The translations under genes were made by a program, and so were the position numbers. The notes under the pieces are model-generated. The model worked only from the letters and a program-made list of their open reading frames with translations. It searched no databases and had not been told where the DNA came from. From Dehalococcoidia bacterium (GTDB lineage: Bacteria > Chloroflexota > Dehalococcoidia > Lucifugimonadales > UBA3495), in contig OZ244811.1 of assembly GCA_965220105.1 (NCBI GenBank), forward strand, positions 709,157 to 773,156: a stretch of DNA of 64,000 nucleotides, written 5' to 3'. The stretch's first letter is position 1; every line of letters starts with the position of its first letter. Of the stretch, positions 45,999 to 64,000 are shown in pieces.

Positions 45999-46072
45999 TC
46001 GGGACGCGTCAGCGAGCGATCCAAGCGATTTTTGTACTCAGTTTGAACTCAGATTCCGTTACGATCAAAAAT

Positions 46073-46092
46073 TGGTGCCGAGGGAGGGAATC
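46073..46092 (-). other. tRNA 3'-end fragment (att site), probably tRNA-Leu
   Basis: Minus strand GATTCCCTCCCTCGGCACCA = end of T-loop, T-stem, acceptor stem and ACCA; no 5' half present; 127 bp from the integrase stop. Confidence 0.75.
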
Positions 46093-46218
46093 AGTCCCAC
46101 TTGCCGATTACGTAGGTTTGAGTAGGCCCGGGTCGAATGCCCGGGCCGATTGCGTGAGATTAGGTGGGCCCTCGTCCTACCTGGTTTGATTACGCCAGGG
46201 CGGGAAACGCGGCGGGAA

Positions 46219-47367
46219 TCACTCGTCGCCCCCCATGGCGCTGGCGAACGCATCCGCGGCACCCTGCTGCCATCCGTAAAGCACGTGGGCGTATTGCCGC
46301 AGCGTTACGCTTGGATCGGAATGCCCCGCCCGCTCGGCCGCTACCGTGACGTTCTCCTTTTCCTGCAATATGACGCTGATGTGAAAGTGCCTGAAACTAT
46401 GGAACGTGATGTCCGGCAATCCTACTCGGGCGCCCAACTCTTTCAGTTGACGCAACATGGTTGTGGGTTTCATCAGTCCGCCGCCAGGACACGGAAACAC
46501 TAAGCCGGTAAGGCCGTCGCTGGTTCCGGCGGCGATCTGAGATCTCTGGTGCTGCCGGAGGACCTCCACGGTCCCGGCGTCGAGCGCAATGGCCCTGATC
46601 CCACTGAGCGACTTGGGCGCCTTGGTCAGCATCCCGTGCTTGTGGGTTTTGCTGGCTGCTACGCGGATGTATATGACGCGTTTGTCCCAGTCAACGCAGC
46701 ACCAGTCGAGGGCCATCCCTTCGCCGCGCCGCATTCCCGTGTACGTCAGCAAGTAGATGTATGCGAACAGGCAGTGCCCTTCCACTTCCGCCAACCTGAG
46801 CAGCCGCTTGATGGGCAGCATGTCGGGAGGCACGATCTTTTTCAGGGGAGCCTTCGGACGCGGGCCGGAGCGCAGCGGGTTGTGGTTGATCAGTTCCATC
46901 TCGATGGCGTATTCGTAAGCCCCGGACAGCACTGTGTGGACTATCTGTATCGACCTGGGAGACAGGCCTTTCTTTGACGTGGCCCCATCCGCCAGGGAGC
47001 GATCCATGATGCGAACGTGCTTTGGCGACAACTCCTTCAACGGGACGTCGCCAACGGTCGGAAAGATATGCAGGTCGGCCGCGCTGGTGTATCGCTCGTA
47101 GGTGGTCACGCCAGGGTAGAGGCGTACGACGTCTTCCAGGTATTTCGGCACCCAGTCCTGCACCAGCACCGGCATGTATAGGGAGCTTTTCCCGGAGATC
47201 ACCTCCTGCTCGGCTTCGGCCGCCATCTCCCGCTGCTTGCGGTCCGCGTCGGACTTGGTGCCGTGCACCGTGCAGGAACGGCGGCGGCGATTGCCCTTGG
47301 CATCGCGTCCTCGTTCGACGGTGATTTCCCAGACACCGCGTTTGCGCTGCCGTTTAGTTCCAGTCAT
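46219..47367 (-). CDS. Tyrosine recombinase/integrase (ICE/phage type)
   Basis: N-terminal arm-binding region (GVWEITVERGRD..G.R); TGMRRGE, PKS, HSFRH, AGHS, YAH catalytic set intact. Confidence 0.95.
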   Translation of the reverse strand: MTGTKRQRKRGVWEITVERGRDAKGNRRRRSCTVHGTKSDADRKQREMAAEAEQEVISGKSSLYMPVLVQDWVPKYLEDVVRLYPGVTTYERYTSAADLHIFPTVGDVPLKELSPKHVRIMDRSLADGATSKKGLSPRSIQIVHTVLSGAYEYAIEMELINHNPLRSGPRPKAPLKKIVPPDMLPIKRLLRLAEVEGHCLFAYIYLLTYTGMRRGEGMALDWCCVDWDKRVIYIRVAASKTHKHGMLTKAPKSLSGIRAIALDAGTVEVLRQHQRSQIAAGTSDGLTGLVFPCPGGGLMKPTTMLRQLKELGARVGLPDITFHSFRHFHISVILQEKENVTVAAERAGHSDPSVTLRQYAHVLYGWQQGAADAFASAMGGDE

Positions 47368-47587
47368 GGGCACACCTCCGTAGTTTGGAATTTTCCATCG
47401 TTGACGTCCGCCAACTCCAGTAAGCGTATCAACTCCGCATTGGGCAATCCGTAGGGATGGCTCTTCGGCCCCTTGGGTGCCCGGCGTTTTATTGACGCCA
47501 CCACACCGTTCCCCGAAGGATTTGATGGCCTCCCCCTCAATATGCGAATTGTCAACCCCAAACGGCGGCTCCCGGTACGACGATAAT

Positions 47588-47735
47588 CGTTAATTTTGTG
47601 CGTCATTCGTCACTCTCAAAATTGGCAATTTGCGCCCGACTCGCCGGGTGTTCCGGGTCTCCCACGTCAATTTTGTGCGTGAGCGACGAGGCCGCGAGCA
47701 ACGTTTACCCCTCCCGGACATTACGAAATTCGTAA
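47588..47735. promoter_or_regulatory. Candidate operator sites in the divergent int/xis intergenic region
   Basis: cgt(t/c)aattttgtgcgt at 47588 and 47665; palindrome ttacgaa-a-ttcgtaa at 47721-47735. Confidence 0.45.
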
Positions 47736-47817
47736 CGCGGCACAATCCCGGAAAACCAGCGCGCGGCGCGGCCTCGTCAACGGCGGCCTCGCTGTGCGCA
47801 AGGAACCGGAGGAATCC

Positions 47818-48225
47818 ATGTCAGTCGAAACACTCCTCGCGTGGATGCATACGGAGGATCGCACGATCCAGTACGTGGCGAGCCGGAGCGGCATCGATCC
47901 AGTCCGTCTCATAAAGCTAATCGCCGGTGCTTCCCCCACTGATGATGAGCTCGTCGCGCTGTCGGCGCTGGCCGGTATCCCGGCGGAGGATCTGAGGGGA
48001 CGCGGTTCCGACCGCGCGTCGGACGGCGACCGCCTCGACCCATTGCGCTGCTACACGGTCGCCGAGGTGGCCGCGCTCATGGGCGTCAGCGCCGACACAG
48101 TCCGCGCCGAGATGAAGTCGGGCACGCTCGAGCACGTAGTGGTCGGCGCTCGGGCGCACCGCATCCCGCGCGCGGCGCTGGAGCGGCGGCTGACGACACC
48201 CGAGCGGGGCCGCGACGGGCCCTGA
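47818..48225 (+). CDS. Xre-like HTH fused to excisionase-type (HTH_17) domain
   Basis: RBS ggagga; VASRSGIDPVRL..L..G; YTVAEVAALMGVSADTVR......L....VG...RIPRAAL. Confidence 0.8.
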   Translation: MSVETLLAWMHTEDRTIQYVASRSGIDPVRLIKLIAGASPTDDELVALSALAGIPAEDLRGRGSDRASDGDRLDPLRCYTVAEVAALMGVSADTVRAEMKSGTLEHVVVGARAHRIPRAALERRLTTPERGRDGP

Positions 48226-48276
48226 ACCGGACCCGCCATGCCGCCACGACCACGAACCGGTTGAGGAAACACAATC

Positions 48277-49868
48277 ATGACCTTGCGCAAACTCAAACGT
48301 GAAGAAGACATATTGACGATCATCTCTTGGCTCTGGATGATGCCGCTGCTGAGCCTGCCCGAGCTGGCGGCGGTCACCGGCCTCACCTACAACCGGTGCA
48401 ACCGGCTCGCCAAAATTCTCTACCGACGGGGCATGGTCGAAAGCGTGCGGCTAGGCATGACGCTGGAGCTCCAGGACAGGTGGTACCTGACCACCGGCGG
48501 CGTCGGCTTCGCGATGCAGAGCTCGGATACCCTCTTGAGTGGCAGGTGTCGGAGGCCGGATTGAAGCTGCTCATCCGCCGCCTTCCCATGCTGGAGACGT
48601 TCTACCGTTTGGCCTGCCGACTGTGGGTCCTGCACGGTGTGCAGCGAATCAACCCGATCTACTGGAGCGACGACCCGGACGACGAGCCGATTGAGTTTCC
48701 TCCCGACCTGCGCCTCACGCGCTTCCAGTGGCAGAGGGATTCCGACATCCACGCCATCACCGAATACGCCAACGGAGCCTGGGCTCCCTGGGTGTGGGTG
48801 GGACCCATGACGAAGATGAGCAGCATAGCGGAGAAGCGAAAACGCGGTGGGGAGCGGCTGGTGGAGCAATTCGGCCGTTGGCAAACTCCGACTCCGGCAC
48901 TCTGGGTGGTAATAGGGGCCGACCACCTCGGCGCTTTCGCGAGCCAAGTCATGTGGCCCGGCGACGACGTGCTGGTGATGACCGCAGATGGCACGCCGGA
49001 GCGATCGGCAGAGCCTCACGACTTCAACGGGGCATGTTTCGAGAACGCCCAGACTGACGACGTGGGCATACCCGAACGCATCCCCGCGTGGGTCCAGAAC
49101 GAACCGGCGGTGAACGGGCTGATCGGCAAGCTCAACTACGCGCTGTTCCAATTTGCCGCCCAGTGGCCCGGAACCAGGGTTGAACATCTGCGCCAACGCT
49201 TCACGGCTTCGGGCCGGGAAATCCAGGCGGCGCTCAAAACATTGGTCAGGGACTGGGATGCCGAACAGAAAAAAAAGGACCAGGACCAGGACGCGGACGA
49301 GGACCGGGGTAAAAACAGGTTGATCGAAAAACGGGGAGGCCACTTCTATCTCCCGCGGCTGGGCATGCTGGCCGCCGCCCGCATGGATCGGATCTCCCAC
49401 CAGAGCATCTACTCCAGCTATGACGTGTACCTCAAGGCCGACGGCCAGTATCGCCGAATCCGGGAGAAACACAACCAGGCCGTGGCCGATTTCGTCCTGG
49501 CGTGGCGACGTAACGGCGGCGAGGCGTTCCACGGCCGCCGTTGGGTAATGCCGTTGGCCGACGGGACCCAGATCATGCCGGACGCCATAGCAATCGGAAG
49601 CCCCGCGGGCAGCCAGGTGGGTTTGTACTTCGTCGAGGTCGAACTCTCGGCCCGCTCTCCCACACCAGTGCGCCACAAGTTGCTCCCGTACCGGACGTAC
49701 CAACAGTCTATCGGACAACCTGTCAATCTCCTGGTTGTCGTGGGCACCGAGGAGGCGGAAAAAAACTTCCTGGAGGAAGGGCGCGGGCTCGCGATTTTTA
49801 CCACCACGCTGGACCGGCTACTGGCGGCCGGCCCGGACGATGATCCTTGGCGCACACCTCGGCCATAG
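48277..49868 (+). pseudogene. Replication-relaxation (Replic_Relax)-like protein with two modules, 1-nt frameshift near 48517
   Basis: wHTH ..WYLTTGG; frames join at GFAM(Q)/ELGYPLEW; second wHTH ..FYLPRLG, HNQAVADF, MPDAI...FVEVE nuclease-like motif. Confidence 0.6.
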
Positions 49869-50663
49869 ACGGCCGAAACGACCCCGATTCAACGTAGTAT
49901 GTGTAGTACGTACTGGGCGCCCTTCACCGGCGCCTCAGTCATTTCACGGACCGCCTGAAAGCAGGTCTGGAAGGCGCCAAAACGCAAACTCGCCCCCCTG
50001 CTCCCAGCATAGAGAGGATGAGTCGGCAAGGGGGCAAGAATTTGCACAATGCCTGAAAGTGGTCCTCACGGACGAGCTAGGCACGCAAACAGGGTCATAG
50101 ATTTGCGTTGTCAACATCGGCAGAGTGCGCGGCCACTTCAGGGAAGCGCGGCTGAATCAATCCCAAGGGGGCGCCCGTTTGCAATTCGTCCACGACGGGG
50201 TCTCACGAATGCTTTGAGCACGGAAACTGGGGGGTCCGTTCGCAAAACTTCTGGCGAGTTCCGGTAAATTTCGTTACGGCGCACGCTCGGCAATCGCCGA
50301 AAACCGGTTCCGAAATCCAGAGATGGGGGATCGATTTGCAACTATAGCAGTGGCTACTCACGAATGGCATGAGTATAGGTAGCGGGGGACGTTTTTGCGA
50401 AATGGGCGAACACGGCAACTGACGATGCCCCAAGGGGGATACAAGCAACACGGTACGGTGGGCCGATACCCTTCGCTGGGGGTCAAGCGGGCGCGACGGG
50501 GTCGGATGGGTCCGACTTGGCCGGACCGACGGAAACGGTGGGGGAACGCCGTGTCGGCCGCCCAGCTCGCTGAGCGTCAGGGCGAGACAACCCCCGCGGC
50601 GGGACTCGATGGTGGGCAGCGCAGAATGTTTCTGCTGCTCCTGGGAAACGCCTGCGATTGCCG

Positions 50664-50915
50664 TCATGCCAGCCGCGTCGGCGGAAACAGCGGGCAGTCT
50701 TCGTTCCGGCAGCCCAAGGTTACGGGGTTGTCCCTGGACAGGCAGTCCTGGTGGATGGCCCGGCCGCAGAGCCAACACCAGAGGCCGCCGATCACCTGGG
50801 TTTCGTCGTCCCGTTCGACGACCAGGACGGCGCGGGCCGAGCCGCAGGCCCAGCACATTTCGCGGAACTGGAGGGAGGTTGGGTCGTCCAGGAATTGAGG
50901 GGTGTGGCGCGCCAT
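50664..50915 (-). CDS. Small Cys-rich (zinc-finger-like) hypothetical protein
   Basis: CWAC, CWLC, H.DC, C...DC in 83 aa; no clear RBS. Confidence 0.4.
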   Translation of the reverse strand: MARHTPQFLDDPTSLQFREMCWACGSARAVLVVERDDETQVIGGLWCWLCGRAIHQDCLSRDNPVTLGCRNEDCPLFPPTRLA

Positions 50916-51053
50916 TCGGTTTACCGCTTACAGTACAATGTCCGTCGCATCCATCTGTAGGGACCACCACCGGAACGGCTTGGCTCGGTGCATGACCCGC
51001 GTTGTTGGTTTCGGCTCGGTTGGTTGACTCTCGATCATCCTGGAGGATGTCTG

Positions 51054-52031
51054 ATGAATAACGGAACGGATGCCGCGAAGGCATGGTTTGGCCGGTCGGC
51101 CTTGACGACGCTGGTCCTGATAGCGGTGGCGGGGCTTCTGCTTTCCTGCGACCAGGAGACGACGGCGCCGGTGCCAGGGACGGGCCAACATCCGCCGGCG
51201 GGTGAGAATGTTACGGCGGTTGAGGTGGAGCACACAACCCGGGCGTCCGCTTCATCGGCACATGCCGATCAACCCCAGTTGTCGCAATCCACCATAAGCG
51301 GGGGGTCGTCGGGTGGGACCGGCGGAAGTTTCGGGAGCTTCCACCTATCGCCGGCTCCACAGACCGCGCCGAACGATATGACGCCGGCCCAAGGGGGGCT
51401 GACGGTTTCGGCCGTTGGCTCCGTGACCCGGTCGGCCGATGAAGCCTATGTGGTGATGATACCGGAACAACGTTACGGACCCTCAGGTCCCGAACAGCTG
51501 TCGGACGATGACCGCGACGACATAGTGGAGAATCTCGGCGAACTGGACATACCCGAGACGGATATCGAGTTCGACTTCCAGGGACGTTACGGTGCAACGA
51601 CCATCGCCGTCGCGGTGGAGCCCGACGAAATCGCCGACGAACATGAGGAGATTCTGGAGGCCGTTGAAGAGGTGATCCGCAGGTTCGAGGCGCAAGGGCT
51701 GCGCTTTGCGTTGAACGCTTCCAACTGCGAACAAGCGCTTTCCGATGCTCGCCGGGAGGCGGCGCCGGCCGCAGAGGACACCGCCGACGATTTGGCGGAG
51801 GCGCTGGGTGTCGAACGCGGTGCGGTGATCGGAGCGTTGGAAGACCGGTCGGTCAACTACCAGACTTTCGCACTGACCAATGCCGATTATGACGCCTGCG
51901 CTACTCCGGCCTCGGCCCCCTACTACCAGCTGTTGCCCTTTGACGCGGACCCCGAGGTCGAGGTATCGGTGAGCCTGCACGTTACATACGTCATAAGCGC
52001 GGCCGCCACCCCTTCGGCAACATCCCAGTAA
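51054..52031 (+). CDS. SIMPL (DUF541) domain lipoprotein
   Basis: RBS ggagga; lipobox LLLSC; LTVSAVGSV...ADEA, AR.EA...A...A..LAEALGV..G.V, VEVSVSLHVTY. Confidence 0.75.
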   Translation: MNNGTDAAKAWFGRSALTTLVLIAVAGLLLSCDQETTAPVPGTGQHPPAGENVTAVEVEHTTRASASSAHADQPQLSQSTISGGSSGGTGGSFGSFHLSPAPQTAPNDMTPAQGGLTVSAVGSVTRSADEAYVVMIPEQRYGPSGPEQLSDDDRDDIVENLGELDIPETDIEFDFQGRYGATTIAVAVEPDEIADEHEEILEAVEEVIRRFEAQGLRFALNASNCEQALSDARREAAPAAEDTADDLAEALGVERGAVIGALEDRSVNYQTFALTNADYDACATPASAPYYQLLPFDADPEVEVSVSLHVTYVISAAATPSATSQ

Positions 52032-52380
52032 GCTTCAGGTCGGGATGCTGTCGGGATGGTTTTCACCGGTGTCGTTGATGGGGGCAGCGGGTTCCTCCGT
52101 GGGCAAAAGGGTCGGAGCGTGAAGGGCCCATGACGCCGCGTTACGGTATGCCGCCGGCGTCGGCGCAGGCGCCGCCGGATGGTGCCCTCAAGCAGGTCGA
52201 CGGCGTCGTCCCGGTCGTAGGCGACGGCCGTGTGCGGCGCGTCGGCATGTTTGCGTACTCGGGTCAGTTGGCGTCAGTAGATACAGGGTGGTTGATGGGC
52301 CCGCTGGTTGGCAACCGCCGGCGCAGTGTTAGCATCTCAATCCGCCATCAATACCCCAGCGCCACAGGAGCCGATCCATC

Positions 52381-53537: not shown

Positions 53538-53542
53538 GACAG

Positions 53543-53752: not shown

Positions 53753-53765
53753 GGTTGTCATCCTC

Positions 53766-53813
53766 GTCGGTTACGGACCCGGTCGGTTACGGACCCGGTC
53801 GGTTACGGACCCG
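53766..53813. repeat. Perfect 16-bp tandem repeat x3
   Basis: gtcggttacggacccg at 53766, 53782 and 53798. Confidence 0.95.
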
Positions 53814-54651
53814 CGCGGTGGACACGCACCGCGTAGTGCTGGATCGTCGTGCCGTCCTCGGCGGTTACGCTGATGGTTACGGTGGTGGTGAAGTCCTCGG
53901 CCAGTTCCACCAGGGCGGTGCCGTAGCCGCTGTCGGAGAGCGCGTCCTCGGGCATGGTTGATACGAGGAAGGTTGCGGCCGGATGCGTCGTCTGGGGCAG
54001 CGCCGCGGTTCGCACCGTTGAGTGCGGCACGCTCACGTCGTAGTCGAACACACCGGATGAGAAGGCAGGAGACCACTCGTCGGGCGACGTGCCGCCCAGC
54101 GTCAGCCCGTCCAGGGTGGCGTCGGTGGACGGCGCCGTTCGTGTAACGGCAACGGTGTAGGTCTTGGTGGTGTTGCGGTCGGCCGAGGTTACGACGATGG
54201 CGATGGCGTTGGCGACGCCCGCGGTGAGCCGGATCACGGCCGGAGCGTGGTCCGACTGCCGCACGCCGCCCAGGTTGATCTCGTAAGTCTCGCTGAGGTG
54301 GGCCAGCACCGGCCGCACGGTAGTGGTCGCCGTCCGGAATGGGACAGTGGCCGAGTACGCGGTCGTGCCCGGGTCGAAAGCAGGCTCCAGCGTCAGGCCG
54401 GTGAGGGTGAGTCCGTTCAGCGTGGCCGGATCCGGCGCCGGCGTGGGCGGCAGGGGATGATCCGCCCAGTCGGCGTAGGGCTGCTCGGTGAGAGCGCGGA
54501 CCACGATGGCCGCCGGCTGCTGCCAGCGCAGGTTCAACCCGTGGCAGTCGGACAGCGGCCCGGCCTGGATGCTGAGCCTGGCCGAGCGGTGGTGGGCGTC
54601 GATGTGGTCGCTGGCCAGCAACAGGCGGCCGCTGGCCTCCTTGAGCCGAAG
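53803..54651 (-). CDS. Protein (or 3' part of a split gene) with two cadherin-like beta-sandwich domains
   Basis: ATLNGLTL...LEPAFDPGTTAY.ATV...VTSADRNTTKTYTVAVTR and DATLDGLTL...SPAFSSG..DY.V.V...VTAEDGTT..Y.V.V.R. Confidence 0.8.
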   Translation of the reverse strand, partial: LRLKEASGRLLLASDHIDAHHRSARLSIQAGPLSDCHGLNLRWQQPAAIVVRALTEQPYADWADHPLPPTPAPDPATLNGLTLTGLTLEPAFDPGTTAYSATVPFRTATTTVRPVLAHLSETYEINLGGVRQSDHAPAVIRLTAGVANAIAIVVTSADRNTTKTYTVAVTRTAPSTDATLDGLTLGGTSPDEWSPAFSSGVFDYDVSVPHSTVRTAALPQTTHPAATFLVSTMPEDALSDSGYGTALVELAEDFTTTVTISVTAEDGTTIQHYAVRVHRAGP

Positions 54652-54655
54652 CTAG

Positions 54656-56106
54656 ACTTTGCGCAAAATTTAGAAAAAGTATAAAGACAGGGTAAGCTGG
54701 CTGGACCCCACTTTCGACGGAAAGGCCCAACCATGCTCACCCTGCCCGATGCCATTGTAGCCCTGCTCGTTCCCTTCGCAACGCTGTTCACCAACCCAAC
54801 TTGGCGGAAAGCCCAACTACTGTTGGTGGGCGCGATCCTCACCCCGGGCCAGCGCACCGTGGCTGCGGCGCTGCGTGTCATGGGCCGCAGCGACCAGCGC
54901 GACTACGCCCGCTATCATGCAGTGCTCAATCGGGCGGTGTGGTCGTCCCGTGAGGTGGCCCGCGTCCTGTTGGTGCTCCTGCTCCAGCACCTGGACCGCG
55001 GCGACGGCCCCTTGATCTTCGGCATCGACGAGACCCTGGAACGGCGGCGTGGCGCCAAGATCAGGGCACGGGCCATCTATCGTGACCCGGTACGTTCCAG
55101 CCGCAATCAGCTGGTCAAGGCTAGCGGGTTGCGCTGGATCTCTCTGATGTGGCTGGGACACGTCCCGTGGGCCGGACGCCATTGGGCCTTGCCGGTGCTC
55201 ACCGTGCTGGCGCCCTCGTCTCGGTACTACCAGCAACAGGGGCGCCGGCACAAGAAGGTCACCGACTGGGCGCGGCAGATGGTAATGCAGCTGCGCCGCT
55301 GGCTGCCCCAGCGCCCGCTGGTGCTGGTGGGCGACAACAGCTACGCCGTCCTCGACCTGCTCCACTGCTGCCAATCCCTCCGTGAACCGGTTACCCTGAT
55401 CGCCAGATTGCGCCTCGACGCCGCCCTCTATGCGCCAGCGCCGCCTCGTCAGCCAGGACAAAACGGCCGCCCACCGCTGAAAGGCGCACGGCGGCCATCG
55501 CTGAAAACGCTCCTCGACCAGGCCGACGTAACTTGGGACAGCGCCGAGGTGGACTGGTATGACGGCACCACCCGCATCGTGGAACTCACCTCCCAGACGG
55601 CGGTGTGGTACCGCTCGGGCAAGCCGCCCGTCATCATTCGCTGGGTGCTGATCCGCGACCCCCAGGGCGCCTTCGCCACCCAGGCTCTGCTCTGCACCGA
55701 CCCGGCGGTGGACCCGACCCAGATCCTCCAGTGGTTTGTCCTGCGCTGGCAATTGGAGGTCACCTTTCAGGAGGTCAGGACCCACCTGGGCGTGGAAACC
55801 CAACGCCAGTGGTCCGACCTGGCCATCGCCCGTACCACTCCCACCCTGCTGGGTCTCTTTTCCTGGACCGCTCTGGCTGCCCACGCGTTGCAAAAACAGC
55901 ACCCCATGACCCAGCGCACCGCGGCCTGGTACGACAAACCGTCGCCAACCTTCGTAGACGCCATCGCCCTGGTGCGACGCCACCTGTGGCTGGCGTCGGA
56001 GGGTTTTTCGACGTCAGTCGCCAACTCCGACACGCAGGAACTCCCTGTCGCTCTATACCACCGACTCGTAGATTCCCTCGCTTACGCCGCTTGAATTGCG
56101 CAAAGT
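54656..56106 (+). mobile_element. IS701-like element, copy B (transposase 54733-56094)
   Basis: TIR actttgcgca / tgcgcaaagt, CTAG on both flanks; 453-aa close paralog of copy A. Confidence 0.88.
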
Positions 56107-56856
56107 CTAGCGAAGGTGCGCGGCGCCTTCCGACCACGGCGCATCCGGCAAAGGCAGCCTGGCCAGCTGGGCCTGGCCGGTTTGGTGCGGGCCGGTCCAG
56201 ACGCTGAGGTTGGCGGATACGGTGGCATCCCGGGGCACCTCCAGTATGGCCACGCCGTCGGCGGCGATGACGATGGGTCGGCCGGCCCAGCCGATCCAGC
56301 TGACCGACGAGTCCAGTGGCGACGGCGTGGCCGTGGGATAGGGCGTGTACGTCGGCCGTGGCGTGCTGGCCAGCCACCCCGCCCGCGGCGTGGGCAACAG
56401 CGCCACCGCGATGCCGGCTCCATTATCGGTGTCGATGGTCCGCTCGACCACCGCGTACTCCTCGGGGTTCCGGGGCGGATCGGTGGGCAACGGGGTGTGG
56501 GTCGGGCGCGGAGTGGCCGTGGGCGACGCCTGGTCGCGGCCCTCCTGCACCGCCAGCGCCAGGTCCAGGCTGCAGGTCTGCCGGACGTCGTGGTGCGTCC
56601 AGTGAGAACCGCGCAGCGCTCCGTCCCCGTCGTAGACACCACTCTCCAGGTCCAGGCGCCCGTCCTGGTAGAGCTCGGCGATGACGTAGCCGGTGCGCGC
56701 CTCCTGCCGGACCTGGGGATGCAGCAGGGAGCCGGGCGGCGCGACACTGCCGTCAACGGTTTCGGTCCGCAGGCTCCAGGCGACCAGGACGGCCAATGCG
56801 ATGAGTACCACCACGGCCGCGGCGCCGGTGATCAGGATGCCGATGCGATCGTTCAC
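56107..56856 (-). CDS. N-terminally membrane-anchored hypothetical protein with PT-rich linkers
   Basis: One TM, PTATPRPTHTP and PRPTYTPYPTATP; TAG stop lies in the IS target site. Confidence 0.65.
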   Translation of the reverse strand: MNDRIGILITGAAAVVVLIALAVLVAWSLRTETVDGSVAPPGSLLHPQVRQEARTGYVIAELYQDGRLDLESGVYDGDGALRGSHWTHHDVRQTCSLDLALAVQEGRDQASPTATPRPTHTPLPTDPPRNPEEYAVVERTIDTDNGAGIAVALLPTPRAGWLASTPRPTYTPYPTATPSPLDSSVSWIGWAGRPIVIAADGVAILEVPRDATVSANLSVWTGPHQTGQAQLARLPLPDAPWSEGAAHLR

Positions 56857-56975
56857 GGGAATGCCTCAGTTGCTGCGCAGGAGGGCCCCTGAGGGCCTTC
56901 GAGGGTTCAAAGCGATGGGGGTTCCTCATTGAAAGGCCAAAGCGCGCGCCGTGCGGCTCCGGCGCGGGAATTGGC

Positions 56976-57506: not shown

Positions 57507-58038
57507 AGGACAATGCTCCTCCCGCGTTGAGTACTGCGGACACGACGCCCACGGCGGCTATGCCGAGGACCAGGCCCATCATGTAGATGTTGCTGAAGAC
57601 GCCGGCTCGTATTGCGAACTCCACGAGTCGAGCGAAGAGCGTGAGGGTGATGAGCGCTCCGACGCAGTTGATGATGATCTTGATCCAGTTGCCGAAGCCG
57701 TCGGACGGCAGCAGCTGCACCAGATCGTAGTTGAGGATGCCCAGGGAGATGATGGTCTTGATCAACGACACCATCCCGCAAAGCGGCGTCACAATGATCC
57801 ACCGGAATATGCTGATGCCGCCCTCGTCGCTCGGCTGGTCGACGCCGGATGGTCCACCGCCGGCAAGCCAGGCGGAGAACGTGTCGTACGGGTGCGCCGC
57901 GTCTCCGGTGGAGGGCAGGAACCCGGTCGCGCCGCCGTAAAAGGGGGTATCGCCCAGGTTGGTCAGGAATATCCCGGCGCCCCATATTGTCATGTGCAGG
58001 ATCACGGCGAAGATGAACAGCGGTATCAGATTGGTCAT
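57499..58038 (-). CDS. Multi-pass membrane protein (179 aa)
   Basis: ATG in TAATG overlap with the Fn3 gene; MTNLIPLFIFAVILH..; 3-4 hydrophobic helices. Confidence 0.75.
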   Translation of the reverse strand: MTNLIPLFIFAVILHMTIWGAGIFLTNLGDTPFYGGATGFLPSTGDAAHPYDTFSAWLAGGGPSGVDQPSDEGGISIFRWIIVTPLCGMVSLIKTIISLGILNYDLVQLLPSDGFGNWIKIIINCVGALITLTLFARLVEFAIRAGVFSNIYMMGLVLGIAAVGVVSAVLNAGGALSCG

Positions 58039-59579
58039 TACGCCCTCGATGCCAGGAAGAAGACTGCGGCGGATGACGCTGCGGCCAGCAGAACGATCCC
58101 GCCGGTCCAGAACAGGTTTCCCACGCCGAAGAGCGGCAGCAGCAGCGACGCGCCGCACATGCACAGCAGGATCAGCGCCTCGCGCCGCGGCGTCTTCATC
58201 GTGCGAAAGCGGAAGCCCGCAAACACGCCCCCGAAGACCGCCAGGCCCAACTGGGCTCCCACCGCGCCTCCGGGGACGCGGTCCGCCCACACCATGAGGC
58301 GCGCCGTTTCCGTGGTGGCGGTGTCGGCGGCGGATTTTGCGCCGTTGGCGGCGCCGGCGCGTGTGGCCGCCACGCGGACGAAATACTCGGTGCTGGCCTT
58401 GAGCCGCTCGATGATCGCGCGGGTGCCGATCACGCTCGCCTGGTCGGGCGCATCGAACGTGGCGGTGGTATCCCATTCGACTATGTAGCCGGTGGCATGC
58501 TGAGCCGCGTCCCACTCCACTTCGATTTCGGAGTCTGAGGTGCCGGTGGCGGCCACTCCCGTAACCTGGCCCGGCGTGGGCGCAGCTTCGGTGTCCTCGC
58601 TTACTTCCGCAGAGGGGGCCCCGTCCGCCGCGCCGGTCCTGGTGGCGGTGACGCGGAAGTAGTAGATCGTGGAATGGGTGAGCCCGTCGACGGTGTATGA
58701 GGCGGAGGTGGTGGTCGCGCTGCCGGTGTAGGTCCCGGAGGTCGTGCCCCACTCCACCCGGTAGCCGCCGGCCCGCAGCGCCGCGGTCCAGGTCACGGTG
58801 ATGGCGACGTCGGAATCGGCGGTAGGGAGGACGCCGGTCACCGGCCCGGGCGGCTGTAGCGTCGTGGTCGCATCGCGCGCGCTGGAGGGCGTGCCGTCTT
58901 CGACGCCGGTCTGGGTGGCGTACACCCGCACGTAATAGGTGGTGTCCTCCTGCAGTCCGGTGATCCGGTAGGTCACTGTCGATCCTGAGCCGATGGTGGC
59001 GTCGGACGGCGATCCGAAGGAGGAGTCCGTGTCCCACTGGACGACGTAGCCGTCGGCGTCGGTGGTCGCGCTCCAGGTGACGGTGATGCTGTCGTGGTCG
59101 TCGGCCGTGGCGCCCACTCCAGTAACCTGGCCCGCCGGTGGCGCGGCCTCGGGGGTGGCATCGTCAGCAGCGGACCATTCTCCTTCTGCCGTGTAGAAGC
59201 CGAACACGTTGACGCAAACGCCCCGGACCTGGACGAAGTAGGGGGCGCCCTCCTGCAGGCCGGTGATCTGGTAACGGTCGGTGGTGTCTGGTATGAAATC
59301 CTCGTCCTGCGGCGACGCGAAGCCGGAGTCGTCGTCCCAACGCACCTCGTAGTACAGGCTATTGCTGCCGCACGTGGACGTGACGGCGTTCCAGGACACG
59401 GTGATGCTGTCGTGGTCGTCGGCGCTGGCGCTCACTCCCGTCACCTGCGGCAGCGCGCCCTGCGCCTCGACCCGGTCGCCGCACCAGGCGACGGCGACGA
59501 CCAGGGCGATGATCGCGACCGCCAGGCCCAGTTGGAGGCGAAACCGGAGACCGACCGGATGGCGGCGGAAATATCTCAT
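58038..59579 (-). CDS. Surface protein with four fibronectin type III domains and a C-terminal 3-TM anchor
   Basis: Four (P)GQVTGV.A....SITV.W.A...A.GY.V.W......GL...T.Y..RV units; signal peptide; ATGA overlap. Confidence 0.88.
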   Translation of the reverse strand: MRYFRRHPVGLRFRLQLGLAVAIIALVVAVAWCGDRVEAQGALPQVTGVSASADDHDSITVSWNAVTSTCGSNSLYYEVRWDDDSGFASPQDEDFIPDTTDRYQITGLQEGAPYFVQVRGVCVNVFGFYTAEGEWSAADDATPEAAPPAGQVTGVGATADDHDSITVTWSATTDADGYVVQWDTDSSFGSPSDATIGSGSTVTYRITGLQEDTTYYVRVYATQTGVEDGTPSSARDATTTLQPPGPVTGVLPTADSDVAITVTWTAALRAGGYRVEWGTTSGTYTGSATTTSASYTVDGLTHSTIYYFRVTATRTGAADGAPSAEVSEDTEAAPTPGQVTGVAATGTSDSEIEVEWDAAQHATGYIVEWDTTATFDAPDQASVIGTRAIIERLKASTEYFVRVAATRAGAANGAKSAADTATTETARLMVWADRVPGGAVGAQLGLAVFGGVFAGFRFRTMKTPRREALILLCMCGASLLLPLFGVGNLFWTGGIVLLAAASSAAVFFLASRA

Positions 59580-62074
59580 GCCCTGAGTTTCCTCAACTTG
59601 ATGAAGGCCCCGATCAATGCCAGCCCCAGCAGGGCCGCGCCGACCATCCACAGGGGCAGCCCCACCCACATGGTGGCGAGGAGCAGGGTGGCCAGCCCCA
59701 GGGCGACCCCGATGCCCAGGGAGAAGCCCGAAGGGCGACCCCGCGCCACCAGGGTGGGGGTGATTCCCAGGAACAACGCGAGCGCCAGCGCCAGCCCGTT
59801 CGTGGCCAGCTCCATGTTGCAGTCCACGTTGGCGCCGTCGCAGATGGCGCCAACCAGTATGCCCACGCCGATTGGGTCTTCACCCTGGACACCATAATCG
59901 GTTGGGCCGTCGACCGCGCCAGGCGCCGGAGCCGGTCCGCCGGCGACGAATATCGGGTACTGGGCCAGCAGGGAATAGTCGGCCTCCTTGATGATCTCCA
60001 GCGTCGAGCTGACGCCACCGTCGCAGACGTGGACGTAAATAGCGTCCAGCTGGTCCAGGTCATCCACCTGCGCTCCGGCCGTGCAGTCCAGCGTGGAGCC
60101 GGAGCTGCCGGTGACACGGACCGCGGTGGCGTTGGAGGAGCGGATGAGGGCCGGGAAGGATCCCGCGCCGCCCTCGACGCGGAAGCGGTAGACCTCGTTG
60201 TCCTCGTAGGCCACGCCCCGGGGGTCCGGCTCCAGGCGCACGTCCAGGTTGGGCTGAAAGCGCGGCGTGGGTGTGGGGATGGGCGTGCGGGTGGGCGGCG
60301 GCAGCCCGAAGGCCTGGAGGGACAGGTTGTAGGCGCCGCCCGCGGTGATGTTCTCCACGTTGATGCGGTACGATCCCGCGGCCACCGACTGGTAGAAGTC
60401 CGCCGGATTGCCCGAGGCGTCGGCGGTGGGCGTGGACGAGTCCGACGCCGCGCCCGGGCGCAGCTCGATGTTGGGGGTGAAACCCACGCCGGAGGCCGAC
60501 GCCGATACCGACGCCTGGAACTCCAGGTAGAAGAAGTACTTGCGGGTGTCGCCGCAGTCGGGGTCGTGGGCGCCGAAGACCTGGAGCTGTTCCGAGGACA
60601 GCGTGCCCAGGTTCACGTCGCAGCCGGACAGCATGGGCTGGGTCTGCAGCCTGGCGGAGAAGCCGCCGGTGGGGTTCGCCGAGTTGAATTCCCGCACCAG
60701 CTCGATGGTGTGCTGCCCCGCCTCGGCCTGGTACACGTAGGGCGTGGACGCGCCGCTGGCGGCGTCGGTGAGCGCGACCGGCTCGCCGCCGATGCCGCCC
60801 TGGCGCAAGAGGGGCAGGGGATTGATGGAGGACGACGTGGCCGTGATGCGCAGGTCCGCGGCATCGGCGAGGCGGAAGGTGTAGAAGGCCGACGGGCAGG
60901 TGGCGTCGATGTCCGCCTCCCAGTCGTGGGTGGCATAGCCGGCGTCCAGAGCGCCGGCGTCGGTGATGCAGGAGCCGGCGACCCTCTCCGTTTCCCGGGA
61001 AACGTTCATACGGGCCGGAACACTCAGGCCCGAGGTGATCACGTCCCCGACCATGCCCGACCCGTCGGCGGCAATCCGCTTCGCGCGGTTGCTGCTGTTG
61101 TCCAGCCAGTAGACGGCGCCGCCGTCCGGACTGACCACCAGGTCGGTGACCGCCCCACCGGCGGAGGTGGTCAGGGTCTCGAAGGTACCGGTCGCGCCGT
61201 CGACCGCCACCCGGCGCACCGCCTGGTCGTCCTCGTCCAGCCAGTAGACGAAGTCGTTGTCCGGGTCCAGCGTCAGGGCGACGGGATCGTCCATGGGCGT
61301 GTCGCCCGTGTTGCTGGCCAGCGTGGTCACGGTGTGGCTGCCGAAGGTCTGAACCCGCTTGATGGTGCTGGCGGCGCCGTTCCGGTCCAGCACGTAAACG
61401 TAGCTGCCGTTGCGGCCCACCTCAAGGTCCTGGGGATTGTTGAGGCCCGTGCTGACCAGGGTGGTGACGGTGTAGGGGCTGAAGGTGGCCACCTCCCGGA
61501 CGGAGTCGTTGCCGCTGTCGGCCCAGTAGAGATAGCTGCCGTCCAGCGCGATGGCGGCGACGTTGGACACCCCGTCCGACGAGTCGGCGATGGTGGTCAC
61601 GGTGTGGGACCCGAAGGTCTGGGCCCGCTTGATGGTGTCGTTGCCGTTGTCGGCCCAGTAGACGTAGGAATAGTCCACCGCGATGCGGTAGGGAGAGCTG
61701 ATGCCGGCGCTCACCAGGGTTTCCACGCTGCCCGTGCCGTCGGCGGACTTGCGGCGAATCTGGTTGTGGCCGTCGTCGGCCCAGTAGACGTAGTCGCCGC
61801 CCGGATCCAGGGCGAAGTCGTTGGTGGTGGACAGCTCCGTGTTGCTCACCACCGTCTCGGCAACTCCCGAGCCGTCCAGGCGGGCGCGCTGGATCTGGGG
61901 ATAGGCTGTGTCCAGCCAGTAGTACCAGTCCACCGTGCGGGTCTGGGAGGATTGGCGGGACGGCCCGGCCTCGGCGTCGGGTCCCCAGACCTGGAGGCTG
62001 ATGATCAGCATCACCGTCGCCGCGATGGCCAGCGCGAGAGCGCGGAGGGAGTGGAGTGTGAGGCGGCGGAGCAC
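59576..62074 (-). CDS. Surface protein: LDL-receptor YWTD-type beta-propeller, PPC-like beta domains, C-terminal 3-TM anchor
   Basis: YYWLD, YVYWAD x2, YLYWAD, YVYVLD, FVYWLD, AVYWLD, IQRARLDGS; two Cys-paired PPC-like units; signal peptide; start approximate. Confidence 0.85.
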   Translation of the reverse strand: MLRRLTLHSLRALALAIAATVMLIISLQVWGPDAEAGPSRQSSQTRTVDWYYWLDTAYPQIQRARLDGSGVAETVVSNTELSTTNDFALDPGGDYVYWADDGHNQIRRKSADGTGSVETLVSAGISSPYRIAVDYSYVYWADNGNDTIKRAQTFGSHTVTTIADSSDGVSNVAAIALDGSYLYWADSGNDSVREVATFSPYTVTTLVSTGLNNPQDLEVGRNGSYVYVLDRNGAASTIKRVQTFGSHTVTTLASNTGDTPMDDPVALTLDPDNDFVYWLDEDDQAVRRVAVDGATGTFETLTTSAGGAVTDLVVSPDGGAVYWLDNSSNRAKRIAADGSGMVGDVITSGLSVPARMNVSRETERVAGSCITDAGALDAGYATHDWEADIDATCPSAFYTFRLADAADLRITATSSSINPLPLLRQGGIGGEPVALTDAASGASTPYVYQAEAGQHTIELVREFNSANPTGGFSARLQTQPMLSGCDVNLGTLSSEQLQVFGAHDPDCGDTRKYFFYLEFQASVSASASGVGFTPNIELRPGAASDSSTPTADASGNPADFYQSVAAGSYRINVENITAGGAYNLSLQAFGLPPPTRTPIPTPTPRFQPNLDVRLEPDPRGVAYEDNEVYRFRVEGGAGSFPALIRSSNATAVRVTGSSGSTLDCTAGAQVDDLDQLDAIYVHVCDGGVSSTLEIIKEADYSLLAQYPIFVAGGPAPAPGAVDGPTDYGVQGEDPIGVGILVGAICDGANVDCNMELATNGLALALALFLGITPTLVARGRPSGFSLGIGVALGLATLLLATMWVGLPLWMVGAALLGLALIGAFIKLRKLRA

Positions 62075-62084
62075 GGTGGTCCCG

Positions 62085-62342
62085 TCAGTCAGTTTCGACG
62101 GCGTCGTCGAAAAGCCAGGCTTTGAACTCTGCGGGCGACTCGACAACCCCGGCGGATACGTTTGCTACCCAGGCCAACACGCAAAGCAGGAACAGGCAGG
62201 CATAGCAGAACGCAACCATGAGGCGCATCAGGAACGGTGATGGCAGTTTCAGGCGGCGGAGCATGGCGTCCCAGCGTTTCCCGGGAAACGCTGGGACCAA
62301 CCGGCCGACTAGCGTGTGTGCTGGGCGCTGCATGCTCTTCAC
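62085..62342 (-). CDS. Small single-TM membrane protein
   Basis: GTG 2 nt after upstream TAG; hydrophobic LMVAFCYACLFLLCVLAWVA. Confidence 0.55.
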   Translation of the reverse strand: MKSMQRPAHTLVGRLVPAFPGKRWDAMLRRLKLPSPFLMRLMVAFCYACLFLLCVLAWVANVSAGVVESPAEFKAWLFDDAVETD

Positions 62343-62344
62343 GT

Positions 62345-62695
62345 CTAACGACCGCAGGTCTTGCAGCGACGGCGGTAGAGTTTGTTGATGCCGGCGGTGG
62401 CCAGCATGGGCACGGCGCTGGCCAACAATGACCACAGGCCGTAGGCGGCGAGGACCGCGGATACTTCGGAGGTGAACCAGGAGTGCGACGTCGGCGCGAT
62501 CGCCAGGTACACGGTTTCCACTGCGGCCACGCCTAACAGCATGATCCCGCCGCCGAACAGCGTGGTCGCGCCGAGGTTCGAGAACATCACCACGACCAGC
62601 GGCCAAGTGCGGCCGCCGTAGTACACGGAACTCTGCTTCCAGCTGGACGCGATCCCACGTTGCAACGCTCGTATCATCATGTTGGTTATCTCCAA
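62345..62695 (-). CDS. Small membrane protein (2-3 TM)
   Basis: Hydrophobic segments; C-terminal CKTC; in the coupled operon. Confidence 0.6.
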   Translation of the reverse strand: MEITNMMIRALQRGIASSWKQSSVYYGGRTWPLVVVMFSNLGATTLFGGGIMLLGVAAVETVYLAIAPTSHSWFTSEVSAVLAAYGLWSLLASAVPMLATAGINKLYRRRCKTCGR

Positions 62696-62711
62696 TCCGC
62701 CAAAGCGGCCG

Positions 62712-64000
62712 CTATCCTCGGACCACCAGCGTGATCTGAGGTGTGCCGCCCCGGCGCCGGCGTTCCTCTTCCTCGTCGTCCCGGCGGCGACGTCCGCCGC
62801 CCCCGCGTCGCGCCGCTCCCCCGCCGCCCGTCAATCCCGCGTAGGGGTCGGGTTTCTTGGCCAGACCTTGACCAGGGCGCAGAGCGACCTTGCGGCGTTC
62901 GGCCTTGGACTCTTCGCTCAGCCCCTGCCCGGATCGCTGTTTGATGGTGGGCCTGGACCCGCCGCCGCTCCGGGCGGATCGTGATTGGTTCTCGAACCGC
63001 TCCCTCATTTTGGCCCGTTGTTCTGCAGTGGGCGCCGTGAACTCGCTCCGTTGCCGGATCTTGGGCCGTTCGCCGACGTTGGCGGACTGAGCCTGGAAAC
63101 GCTCATTCATCCGTGCCCGTTGCTCAGCAGTCGGCGGCGTGAACTGGGCAGGTTGCCGGATCTGAGGCCGTTCGCCGACGCTGGCGGACCGAGCTTCCGA
63201 CAGCGCGGCCTCCACCACCTGGCGATCCGCATCAGACACACCGTGGGGATGGATCTCGGCTGCGCCCGGGTCGCGCAGCCTGGCGTCGCGCCGTCGCGTA
63301 GCCGACTCCAACAGGACCTGATCCTCCGTGGCTTCGATGATCAACGGACCGGACCGGTGGACGTTGCCGGCGGGGTCCTCGGGCGAATACGCTGTTACCT
63401 TCGCGGTGCCGATGGACACATGCTCCACCGGTGTGATGGTTTGCTCACCGGTGACCAGGTCAGTGGTCGTCTTGGTGACGTCGTAGTGCGTGATTTCCCG
63501 AGGGTTCAGGCCGGGTTCGACATCCACCGGATCCGGTATAACTCGGCGGCTCACGTCGTCATCAGAACTGCCAGAACCGCCGCGGCCGCGTTGTAGCAGT
63601 GCCCGGCCGGTGTCGCCAGCGGTGCTGGTGCGCTGCCGCTCAATCGAGATCGAAGGCGTTTGGGGGATGCGGGGCTCCGGCACGCGAGGGGCAGGGACGC
63701 GAGGCTCCGGCTGGGGCAGGCGCGGCGCCGGGACCTCCCGCGTGCGCAGCTGTTGGGGCTCGGGCAGTCGTGGCTCTGGGACGCGAGGCTCCGGCTGGGG
63801 CAGGCGCGGCGCCGGGACCTCCGGCGTGCGCAGCTGTTGGGGCTCGGGCAGTCGTGGCTCTGGGACGCGAGGCTCCGGCTGGGGCAGGCGCGGCGCTGGG
63901 ACCTCCGGCGTGCGCAGCTGTTGGGGCTCGGGCAGTCGTGGCTCTGGGACGCGAGGCTCCGGTTGGGGAACCCTTGGGCTTACAAGGCCAAAGCGATCAG
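62712..64000 (-). CDS. Low-complexity Pro/Arg-rich repeat protein (5' partial)
   Basis: Frame is open from the window end to the stop at 62712; 28-aa and 34-aa internal repeats; highly charged tail. Confidence 0.65.
   Translation of the reverse strand, partial: DRFGLVSPRVPQPEPRVPEPRLPEPQQLRTPEVPAPRLPQPEPRVPEPRLPEPQQLRTPEVPAPRLPQPEPRVPEPRLPEPQQLRTREVPAPRLPQPEPRVPAPRVPEPRIPQTPSISIERQRTSTAGDTGRALLQRGRGGSGSSDDDVSRRVIPDPVDVEPGLNPREITHYDVTKTTTDLVTGEQTITPVEHVSIGTAKVTAYSPEDPAGNVHRSGPLIIEATEDQVLLESATRRRDARLRDPGAAEIHPHGVSDADRQVVEAALSEARSASVGERPQIRQPAQFTPPTAEQRARMNERFQAQSANVGERPKIRQRSEFTAPTAEQRAKMRERFENQSRSARSGGGSRPTIKQRSGQGLSEESKAERRKVALRPGQGLAKKPDPYAGLTGGGGAARRGGGGRRRRDDEEEERRRRGGTPQITLVVRG
63694..63968. 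repeat. 84-bp coding tandem repeat (~3.3 copies)
   Basis: Units start at 63694, 63778, 63862 and 63946; encodes PEPRVPEPRLPEPQQLRTPEVPAPRLPQ on the minus strand. Confidence 0.92.

Follow-up and report, generated by a model that had tools for sequence, protein, structure and literature searches.

The window analysed here, a stretch of 64,000 nucleotides from a Dehalococcoidia bacterium (bases 709157-773156 of a single-contig, 4.37-Mb genome; positions outside it are given as window-equivalents), carries in its last 18 kb the integrase-proximal third of an integrative element of about 50.7 kb. Together with its relatives, this element defines a family of 44-51-kb integrative elements with a membrane module centred on a Zot-type ATPase. 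By analogy with known systems, and from one remote-homology marker, we see an even chance that it is a provirus, decaying or defective, of a non-tailed, membrane-assembled double-stranded DNA (dsDNA) virus lineage of Dehalococcoidia. The original prediction, made from the letters of the window, had proposed a temperate membrane-associated virus-like element of which only part was visible. It was right about the visible part, and the virus-like reading is strengthened by a Zot/pI-like ATPase, by the lack of rival machinery and by the precedent of the IME1 elements of Dehalococcoides mccartyi and Dehalogenimonas (Nesbo et al., bioRxiv 10.64898/2026.09.15.751708), but weakened by the fact that this copy is damaged by insertion sequences (ISs) and appears fixed. 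Hereafter, the element in the window is named copy 1, two paralogous elements of the same genome are copies 2 and 3, and G507, G508 and G509 designate other Dehalococcoidia chromosomes.

The region has a G+C content of 62-69%, and since this makes raw lists of open reading frames (ORFs) noisy, genes were called with a log-odds model of codon usage, for which 407 long ORFs of the genome served as training set; transmembrane (TM) segments are hydropathy-scan predictions throughout. A search beyond the window for a Zot/pI ATPase, which the original prediction had suggested, led to a P-loop ATPase of 410 residues, with a Walker A-like motif GQMGAKKT and a Walker B motif VILVDEAH, whose best matches by sequence, by profile bridging and by structure are all of the Zot/pI type. 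It matches PHROG_197 ('Zot-like') with an E-value of 1.8e-3, and reaches 11.4 bits (E 0.35) against Pfam Zot (PF05707), below the cut-off of 20.3, with no Zot row at E <= 0.01 in hmmscan. Seeding with the single sequence matched 38 clusters among 5.8 billion, none of them named, whereas a 25-member profile matched 430 clusters at E <= 1e-3 among 1.84 billion representatives; four of 33 distant full-length family members exceed the Pfam Zot threshold, and many show weak AAA matches. With the ATPase core (residues 106-240), tblastn recovered 13 small Bacillus plasmids (25-29% identity, E 3e-5 to 0.1), in six of which the matched gene is annotated as a Zot-domain protein. The AlphaFold2 model (mean predicted local distance difference test score, pLDDT, 75.6) has as its top Foldseek match in the PDB the Zot N-terminal domain of a Neisseria prophage (2r2a, E 4.6e-6), and as its top match in BFVD an Inoviridae Zot (E 8.5e-8). 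VIA-align superposes the model on 2r2a with a Z-score of 12.1 (root-mean-square deviation 3.4 A, 163 residues), followed by the B204 packaging ATPases of Sulfolobus turreted icosahedral viruses (STIV/STIV2, 10.9), HerA (10.8) and RecA (10.5). A C-terminal helical domain (about residues 335-407, pLDDT 85-93) resembles a helix-turn-helix (HTH) by eye. Sequence and model thus concur in placing the protein as a Zot/pI-like member of the FtsK/HerA-type ATPases.

Several candidate relatives of the ATPase were set aside. Pfam Zot matches occur in 12 of 401 Dehalococcoidia genomes, most of them being HerA-like or PriA proteins. Two proteins of about 385 residues with a C-terminal HTH (in G262 and G397) show a weak alignment to the family (15 bits in a 12-sequence search), but their neighbourhoods share nothing with the element. 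In a further genome, G412, an ATPase of 31% identity lies 4 kb from an integrase with no TM genes, and was classed as a remnant. JGI metagenomes gave no match with either the ATPase profile or the profile of the 308-residue protein encoded next to it.

The ATPase gene belongs to a conserved late operon of about 20 kb, which opens with two HTH-like proteins of 157 and 80 residues, followed by a 259-residue protein with six TM segments, whose gene lies immediately upstream of that of the ATPase and overlaps it by 4 nt. The ATPase is followed by a soluble protein of 308 residues, by proteins of 171, 322, 82, 265 and 130 residues with one to four TM segments each, by a 64-residue protein and by a giant gene; the 265-residue membrane protein is duplicated in copy 2, G507 and G508. 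Further small membrane proteins, surface proteins with propeller, fn3 or cadherin-like domains, small genes, an excisionase-like gene, the integrase and the attachment-site (att) fragment complete the order. The module is syntenic in all three copies of this genome; from the HTH genes to the giant gene, the operon is also syntenic in three other Dehalococcoidia chromosomes (31-82% amino acid identity), and in G507 and G509 the onward order is also the same, with the giant gene, the 116-residue, propeller, fn3, 179- and 176-residue proteins, the anchored cadherin-like protein, small genes and the integrase. G507, G508 and G509 all have the propeller protein, its gene lying 14-17 kb downstream of that of the ATPase. 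For ten core genes compared between copy 1 and G507, the ratio of non-synonymous to synonymous substitution rates (dN/dS) is 0.19-0.58. Synteny and dN/dS indicate that the ATPase-membrane module is real and under selection. Chromosomal homologs of the operon lacking an integrase link would have spoken against the original prediction; a tyrosine integrase is linked to it in all four elements readable to the distal end (copies 1 and 2, G507, G509).

With regard to the other conserved proteins of the operon, the 308-residue protein is modelled by AlphaFold2 as all-helical (pLDDT 64.3); Foldseek returned nothing for it at E <= 0.001, a VIA-wide comparison returned generic helical hairpins only (Z <= 8.5), and there was no usable atlas match. 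The giant gene corresponds to an ORF of about 1,577 residues once an interrupting IS is discounted; its product has no sequence match in the PDB, and 13 relatives of 1,000-2,400 residues show no consistent domain.

The part of the operon that lies inside the window (Table 1) fits the earlier description well. The minus-strand run had been said to be translationally coupled with one gap of about 120 bp, and between 56107 and 62074 the genes overlap by 4, 1 and 8 nt, with a single gap of 119 nt. Small TM proteins had been announced, and one to four TM segments are predicted by hydropathy in the proteins of 71, 116, 176 and 179 residues. The large C-terminally anchored adhesins correspond to the fn3 and propeller proteins (513 and 832 residues), each with two C-terminal TM segments; the former is a candidate adsorption protein. 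Candidates for a short coat protein are the 82-residue (two TM segments) and the 71-residue (one TM segment) proteins, neither of which has a family match. When 15 membrane proteins from two copies were compared with PHROGs at E <= 5, only chance-level rows were obtained, and none of these proteins matched a PHROG, the VP1 family of Sulfolobus spindle-shaped virus SSV1 included.

Table 1. Positions of the features of copy 1 (window numbering)
Feature	Position	Strand	Remarks
att fragment	46073..46092	-	exact last 20 nt of tRNA-Leu(UAA); integrase-side boundary
TTTGAGTAGG motif	46117..46126	+	about 25 nt inside the att fragment
Tyrosine integrase, 384 aa	46219..47373	-	Pfam Phage_integrase E 1.1e-16; PHROG_1 E 1.6e-55
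Double-HTH protein, 143 aa (HTH_3 + HTH_17/excisionase family)	47794..48225	+	HTH_17 E 4.8e-9; TIGR01764 'excise' E 1.2e-8
513-aa protein with N-terminal winged-HTH-like region	48327..49868	+	Replic_Relax-like by language-model atlas features only
Cys-rich small protein, 83 aa	50664..50915	-	conserved in copy 2 (86% aa identity), G507 and G508
SIMPL/DUF541-domain protein	50988..52031	+	probable cargo
Two coupled small genes, 112 aa and 72 aa	53208..53761	-	72-aa product conserved in copy 2, G507 and G509
C-terminal half of IS-split membrane-anchored surface protein	53803..54621	-	two cadherin-like beta-sandwich domains
IS, 1,459 bp	54652..56110	+	DDE_5 transposase, 453 aa (54733-56094); 5-bp target duplication CGAAG
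N-terminal half of IS-split cadherin-like protein	56107..56856	-	TM anchor at residues 7-25, Pro/Thr-rich linkers; 95% aa identical to copy 2
Single-TM protein, 176 aa	56976..57506	-	no family
Protein with four TM segments, 179 aa	57499..58038	-	no family
Surface protein, 513 aa	58038..59579	-	N-terminal hydrophobic segment, four fn3 domains, two C-terminal TM segments
Surface protein, 832 aa	59576..62074	-	N-terminal hydrophobic segment, YWTD/lactonase-type beta-propeller, two C-terminal TM segments, basic tail
Single-TM ORF, 71 aa	62085..62300	-	weak coding score; no paralogue found
Protein with two TM segments, 116 aa	62345..62695	-	conserved in copy 2, G507 and G509
Giant repeat protein, C-terminal part	62712..64000	-	no TM segment, Arg/Gly-rich C-terminus; continues beyond the window
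P-loop ATPase, 410 aa	73164-74396	-	beyond the window, in the conserved late operon

The extent of copy 1 was set by homology to the two paralogous copies and to the syntenic elements of other Dehalococcoidia chromosomes. Copy 2 is collinear with the genes of copy 1 from 95388 down to the integrase, so copy 1 runs from 46073 to window-equivalent 96769, the far boundary being the 3' end of a tRNA-Ser(GGA) at 96770. At the near end, the predicted att fragment is indeed identical to the 3' end of the tRNA-Leu(UAA) gene, and the only other copy of this 20-mer in the 4.37 Mb, at window-equivalent -76443, adjoins a paralogous integrase. An intact tRNA-Leu had been expected as the other att site; this is not the case, since the opposite end is the tRNA-Ser(GGA), the intact tRNA-Leu(UAA) lying 1.4 Mb away, and ARAGORN finds no tRNA within the window. 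The ends of copy 1 are therefore mismatched, as are those of copy 2 (Ser at one, Leu(CAA) at the other), and no direct repeat of at least 13 nt joins both ends of copy 1. By contrast with these mismatched ends, the 43.8-kb element of G507 lies between two direct copies of a tRNA-Leu-like 3' end, the first of which follows the integrase of another element, forming a tandem array.

A TTTGAGTAGG(A) motif occurs 20-30 nt inside both ends of copies 1 and 2 as an inverted repeat. In copy 1 the inverted counterpart is at window-equivalent about 96745, some 20 nt from the tRNA-Ser end, and a related motif is found near the ends of the G507 element; TTTGAGTAGG may represent a recombinase-binding repeat. 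A doubled GTTTGTCCCAC motif was also noticed at 45976-46000, 73 nt outside the att fragment; at the paralogous site (window-equivalent about -76330) it lies between att fragment and integrase, and in G507 a similar doubled TTTGTCC motif follows the distal att fragment. Five tRNA genes (Ser-GGA, Ser-CGA, Leu-UAA, Leu-CAA and Val-GAC) are each followed, after 250-300 nt, by a gene for a MerR-like protein of 130-138 residues, which marks the tRNA-proximal end of this element type (window-equivalent 95388-95804 in copy 1).

Genome-wide, six tRNA 3'-end fragments of 20-26 nt adjoin integrase paralogues (a seventh paralogue is without a fragment of at least 16 nt), and none of the six lies beside the intact tRNA from which it originates (e.g. 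window-equivalents -76443, 494047, 573065, 2428766 and 2987193); the chromosome thus appears heavily rearranged around integrated elements. The genome is very IS-rich. The two further element copies were revealed by tblastn of the proteins of the region against the genome. Copy 2 (44.6 kb) starts directly behind tRNA-Ser(CGA); at its other end, an integrase gene with a frameshift precedes a 20-nt 3' fragment of tRNA-Leu(CAA). Copy 3 is partial and cut by an IS. Gene-by-gene identity among the three is mosaic (30-97%), and DNA tracts of 91-94.5% identity between copies (88965-91227 and 60203-61954) point to recombination between co-resident copies. Because the copies share such tracts, the simplest cause of the mismatched ends would be recombination between inverted co-resident elements, together with IS-mediated rearrangement.

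Two ISs with transposases of 100% amino acid identity have inserted in copy 1. The one inside the window, which the original prediction had missed, splits an anchored cadherin-like gene that is a single 528-residue ORF in copy 2; contigs of all four public runs compared also contain the joint free of this IS. The second (window-equivalent 67309-68767, target duplication GCAAG) interrupts the giant gene about 47 codons from its start. Besides the copy at 54733-56094, the genome carries 19 full-length copies of the DDE_5 transposase, one of them at 43120-44481 of the window. In G509, a 92%-identical IS lies at the same relative place, after the first 50 or so codons of the giant gene, and its relative orientation is the same; the IS may thus have a preferred target (its duplications being CGAAG and GCAAG). 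Copy 1 is most likely inactive, as ISs split two of its late genes. It also appears to be fixed in the chromosome: a contig of one public run (X1) crosses the left junction without a difference (44711-50716), another (X3) does so with two differences (45671-47112), and these runs are coded as two different host organisms. No loose end or joint at the att fragment was seen in public contigs, which cannot show rare circles.

With regard to the integrase-side genes, most of the earlier assignments stand. The integrase, described as intact, is supported by its Pfam and PHROG matches, its catalytic motifs (R, HxxR, H...Y) being readable in the translation, and the excisionase-like HTH protein by its HTH_17 and TIGR01764 matches. 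The replication-relaxation-like gene at 48327-49868 is the weakest of the assignments: the atlas neighbours of its product are Chloroflexota Replic_Relax clusters (0.90-0.92), but it has no Pfam match, and PF13814 has no match anywhere in the genome. This gene has no counterpart in copy 2 and does not belong to the conserved element, being found in copy 1 only. For the 112-residue ORF, NCBIfam returned 17 bits against a Shiga-toxin B-subunit model with a cut-off of 201, which was treated as chance.

Beyond the late operon, the minus-strand order from the tRNA-Ser end comprises the MerR-like gene, an N6/N4 methylase, a DnaA_N-like protein, a phage zinc-finger protein, DUF5679 and small ORFs, then a defence-type block with a Hypoth_Ymh protein, a type IIG-like methylase of 1,043 residues, an HNH nuclease, a split helicase of superfamily 2, an AbiJ/STM4504-like protein and an IS630-family element. 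Of this cargo, the AbiJ/STM4504-like protein, the split helicase (of the ResIII/DEAD type), the HNH nuclease and the methylase occupy window-equivalents 79403-87343. Two paralogues of the methylase, with 62-70% identity, are encoded elsewhere in the genome, and the 353-residue Hypoth_Ymh-domain gene contains a unit of roughly 100 bp repeated about five times in tandem (window-equivalent 88.3-88.75 kb). The early region of copy 2 encodes instead an 840-residue protein with Toprim and DUF5906 domains, both below the Pfam cut-offs.

Machinery of other mobile elements was searched for with Pfam in 86 ORFs of the whole element (38 + 20 + 28) and with PHROGs in 36. No terminase, portal, capsid, tail, VirB4, VirD4/TraG, FtsK or relaxase family was found among the 86, and nothing of a tailed phage or type IV secretion system among the 36, where the only 'tail' rows were fn3-repeat matches of the fn3 surface protein. 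There was no match to PF12846 (AAA_10) inside the element, no resolvase family by Pfam, and no Rep/HUH or SSB family in 86 + 21 ORFs. The absence of VirB4/VirD4, terminase, portal, HK97 capsid and tail genes, noted earlier for the 18 kb, can thus be extended to the whole element; the remainder contains neither a type IV secretion system nor a tailed-phage module, either of which would have spoken against the original prediction.

The host is probably a bacterium without peptidoglycan, judging from its genes: in this genome (96.8% complete) the penicillin-binding protein (PBP) transpeptidase had no match, while the control matched in all ten bacterial reference genomes, and Mur_ligase_M had a single match. 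Such a host would have no need for lysis enzymes or a secretin, which fits extrusion, budding or fusion-based transfer. The closest relatives of the element's marker genes are in complete Dehalococcoidia chromosomes, in agreement with the Chloroflexota host proposed at the outset and narrowing it to this class. The genome also contains a small array of clustered regularly interspaced short palindromic repeats (CRISPR) at genome positions 1004900-1005420 (window-equivalent about 295.7-296.3 kb), with a 29-nt repeat and six spacers, none of which matches the genome elsewhere; spacer hits had been proposed as a check, and none of the six, in the one array of the genome, matches any element copy. 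Of 12 public runs examined, none that contains the element is an RNA run, and no virome run was identified.

If the element is a provirus of this type, its excised circular dsDNA would replicate from its own primase-helicase or initiator, the ATPase would dock at the membrane through the adjacent polytopic protein, and its C-terminal domain would recognise element DNA. The ATPase would then drive this DNA into a particle assembling from membrane-inserted small proteins, with the anchored adhesins incorporated at one end of the particle or on its surface, like pIII in Ff phages. Exit would take place by extrusion or budding without lysis, a route made plausible by the host's lack of detectable peptidoglycan machinery. 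Copy 1 itself is probably no longer capable of such a cycle.

A number of observations weigh against this provirus. Virions are unproven, and the family is seen here in genes and integrated contigs, whereas viromes, circles and particles are reported for IME1 by the preprint; the likeness to IME1 is one of described architecture. No coat protein is identified, no membrane protein matched any PHROG, and the conserved 308-residue partner of the ATPase is modelled without a recognisable fold. All three copies in the genome are damaged, and public contigs show the integrated state only. At 44-51 kb, the elements greatly exceed any inovirus in length and are twice as long as IME1. The ATPase has no TM segment by hydropathy, unlike pI, scores below the Pfam Zot gathering threshold (11.4 vs 20.3 bits), and is structurally only about one Z unit closer to Zot than to generic FtsK/HerA/RecA ATPases. 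By tblastn it has no match in 50,697 phage records, and neither it nor its neighbour has a relative in IMG/VR.

A conjugative DNA pump, too, could be an ATPase with such a C-terminal, DNA-binding-like domain, and the element might be a novel integrative conjugative element, in which a Zot/FtsK-HerA-type ATPase would pump dsDNA via a channel of small membrane proteins while the anchored proteins would join donor and recipient, as a wall-less counterpart of the TraB/Spd system of actinomycete integrative and conjugative elements (AICEs). AICEs combine int, xis, rep, one DNA-translocase-type ATPase with a DNA-recognition domain and small membrane 'spread' proteins within 9-24 kb, without large anchored adhesins. 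The element likewise combines int and xis with a replication gene, a single P-loop ATPase and numerous small hydrophobic proteins, and lacks a capsid gene; its ATPase fold is nearly as near HerA and the FtsK/HerA superfamily as Zot, the C-terminal helical domain is confidently modelled (pLDDT 85-93), copy 1 has the Replic_Relax-like gene, the family is absent from IMG/VR and phage records, and a wall-less host needs no hydrolase. However, TraB is an FtsK_SpoIIIE-family protein, and no such match, nor any VirB4, VirD4/TraG or relaxase, is present in the 86 ORFs; the best matches by sequence, profile bridge and structure are all to the phage assembly ATPase Zot/pI and none is conjugative, the Replic_Relax-like gene is missing from copy 2, and the nearest published analogue, from the same class, came from viral fractions. 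We consider conjugation less likely than the provirus, which is the best supported reading, but a serious rival to it.

Two other explanations have less in their favour. The late operon might be a surface display or secretion system for eukaryote-like adhesins and the giant protein, useful to a host-associated bacterium and carried as cargo of an element moving otherwise. Its fn3, YWTD-propeller and cadherin-like domains are of eukaryote-like types, the number of fn3 repeats varies among relatives (four in copy 1, about 15 in G509), the runs in which the element is present bear the labels of four different organisms, and the junction is fixed in strains of two host organisms. Such a role is nonetheless improbable, as the order from ATPase to adhesins and the terminal integrase are kept in all four elements readable to the distal end, the operon makes up nearly half of the element with no other part that could move or package DNA, and we know of no Zot-type ATPase acting as a protein-secretion motor. 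Still less probable is a satellite or helper-dependent island, supplying adsorption and membrane functions only and borrowing a capsid or transfer apparatus. This would account for the lack of a capsid or coat gene, and could be related to the tandem arrays with other integrase-bearing elements in G507 and to the several related integrases of the genome, but a 20-kb conserved operon with its own assembly-type ATPase far exceeds the load of known satellites, and the IME1 authors argue against the same idea for IME1.

The closest precedent for a membrane-assembled provirus is IME1. According to the preprint, IME1 elements measure 20.9-28.1 kb. They encode a tyrosine recombinase and a serine resolvase, an archaeal-type primase-helicase, a pI-like ATPase with five groups of TM proteins behind it, and proteins of the CARDB and PEP-CTERM types; they occur in integrated and circular forms, dominate culture viromes and co-occur with filamentous particles. 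Their authors propose that they form a new, Chloroflexota-restricted virus lineage with dsDNA genomes and budding or filamentous particles (10.64898/2026.09.15.751708). Compared by description, the present family shares with them the bacterial class, a tyrosine recombinase at one end, the lack of tailed-phage hallmarks, a pI-like ATPase and a run of small TM proteins followed by TM or signal-peptide proteins with adhesion-type domains, as well as a primase-helicase (here in copy 2 only), HNH nucleases, repressors and several divergent copies per genome. It differs in its size (44-51 kb vs 21-28 kb), in its giant protein of about 1,577 residues, in its adhesin domains (fn3, YWTD propeller and cadherin-like instead of CARDB and PEP-CTERM), in the C-terminal helical domain of its 410-residue ATPase and in that no serine resolvase was found here by Pfam. 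The 'new integrative element class' of the original prediction was therefore an overstatement, given IME1.

Other systems resemble the family in part. Inoviruses (Inoviridae/Tubulavirales) are single-stranded DNA (ssDNA) phages with a rolling-circle Rep and an ssDNA-binding protein, and Roux et al. in 2019 reportedly dealt with 'cryptic inoviruses'. As in the present elements, a Zot/pI-type ATPase is their only recognisable morphogenesis gene, accompanied by many short hydrophobic proteins and a large adsorption-type protein with a C-terminal membrane anchor; some members establish integrase-dependent lysogeny, and exit is non-lytic. Fuselloviridae, Pleolipoviridae and the Acholeplasma plasmavirus L2 are temperate dsDNA viruses of 7-20 kb infecting peptidoglycan-free hosts, with an integrase, hydrophobic structural proteins, anchored spikes or adhesins and a P-loop NTPase; no PHROG of these viruses, whose families PHROGs holds, matched any protein here. 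Inovirus genomes measure 4-11 kb (10.64898/2026.09.15.751708). The present elements are 4-10 times larger, no HUH Rep was found in them, and their ATPase lacks pI's own TM segment and remains below the Pfam Zot threshold. The Bacillus Zot-domain replicons (PLSDB, e.g. NZ_CP025002.1, 12.4 kb, where small ORFs and a 485-residue fn3-domain protein follow the Zot gene) gave the only direct tblastn matches of the ATPase core; they are, in contrast, Bacillota plasmids of 7-25 kb with a plasmid Rep and no integrase listed, and the match covers a third of the ATPase.

The family has a narrow distribution. It was found in one of 401 class-level and one of 401 phylum-level genomes (its own in both cases), and in four of 121 order-level genomes, namely, its own, G412 and, as remnants, G460 and G440. 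A separate integrase-bounded element was observed beside a tRNA-Ala in a 1.5-Mb Dehalococcoidia genome (G055:C1:170380-187390), encoding an SSB, several TM proteins and a Zot/AAA-like ATPase of 181 residues, with the gene of a LexA-like repressor on the opposite strand. This element has no detectable sequence similarity to the late operon, and only in part resembles the description of IME1.

We can tentatively propose, with more doubt than confidence, that the 44-51-kb elements represent, in proviral form, a new family of large dsDNA viruses without tails that infect peptidoglycan-free Dehalococcoidia and have the largest genomes yet tied to a pI/Zot-type assembly ATPase. This ATPase would be split from its membrane part and would read a packaging signal with its C-terminal domain, the giant protein with its Arg/Gly-rich tail would travel with or measure the DNA, and the virion surface would display eukaryote-like fn3, YWTD-propeller and cadherin-like adhesins of strain-varying repeat number. 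With IME1, such viruses would form a Chloroflexota-wide lineage bridging filamentous phages and archaeal budding viruses.

Set against IME1 and the breadth of inovirus-like elements, the general kind appears, by analogy, to be already known, and the element to be a variant of it. To our knowledge, almost all known non-tailed, non-lytic bacterial viruses are small ssDNA filamentous phages. If the elements are viral, the size range of IME1 would be doubled again and the idea extended to a large-genome, IS-rich lineage of Dehalococcoidia, for which the family supplies candidate parts in the form of a split ATPase, a giant protein and modular adhesins; if they are conjugative, they would represent a new minimal conjugation system for wall-less bacteria. 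Having no relative in IMG/VR or phage records, the family marks a blind spot in provirus detection, and the window copy, a decaying remnant, has its value as a pointer to this family.

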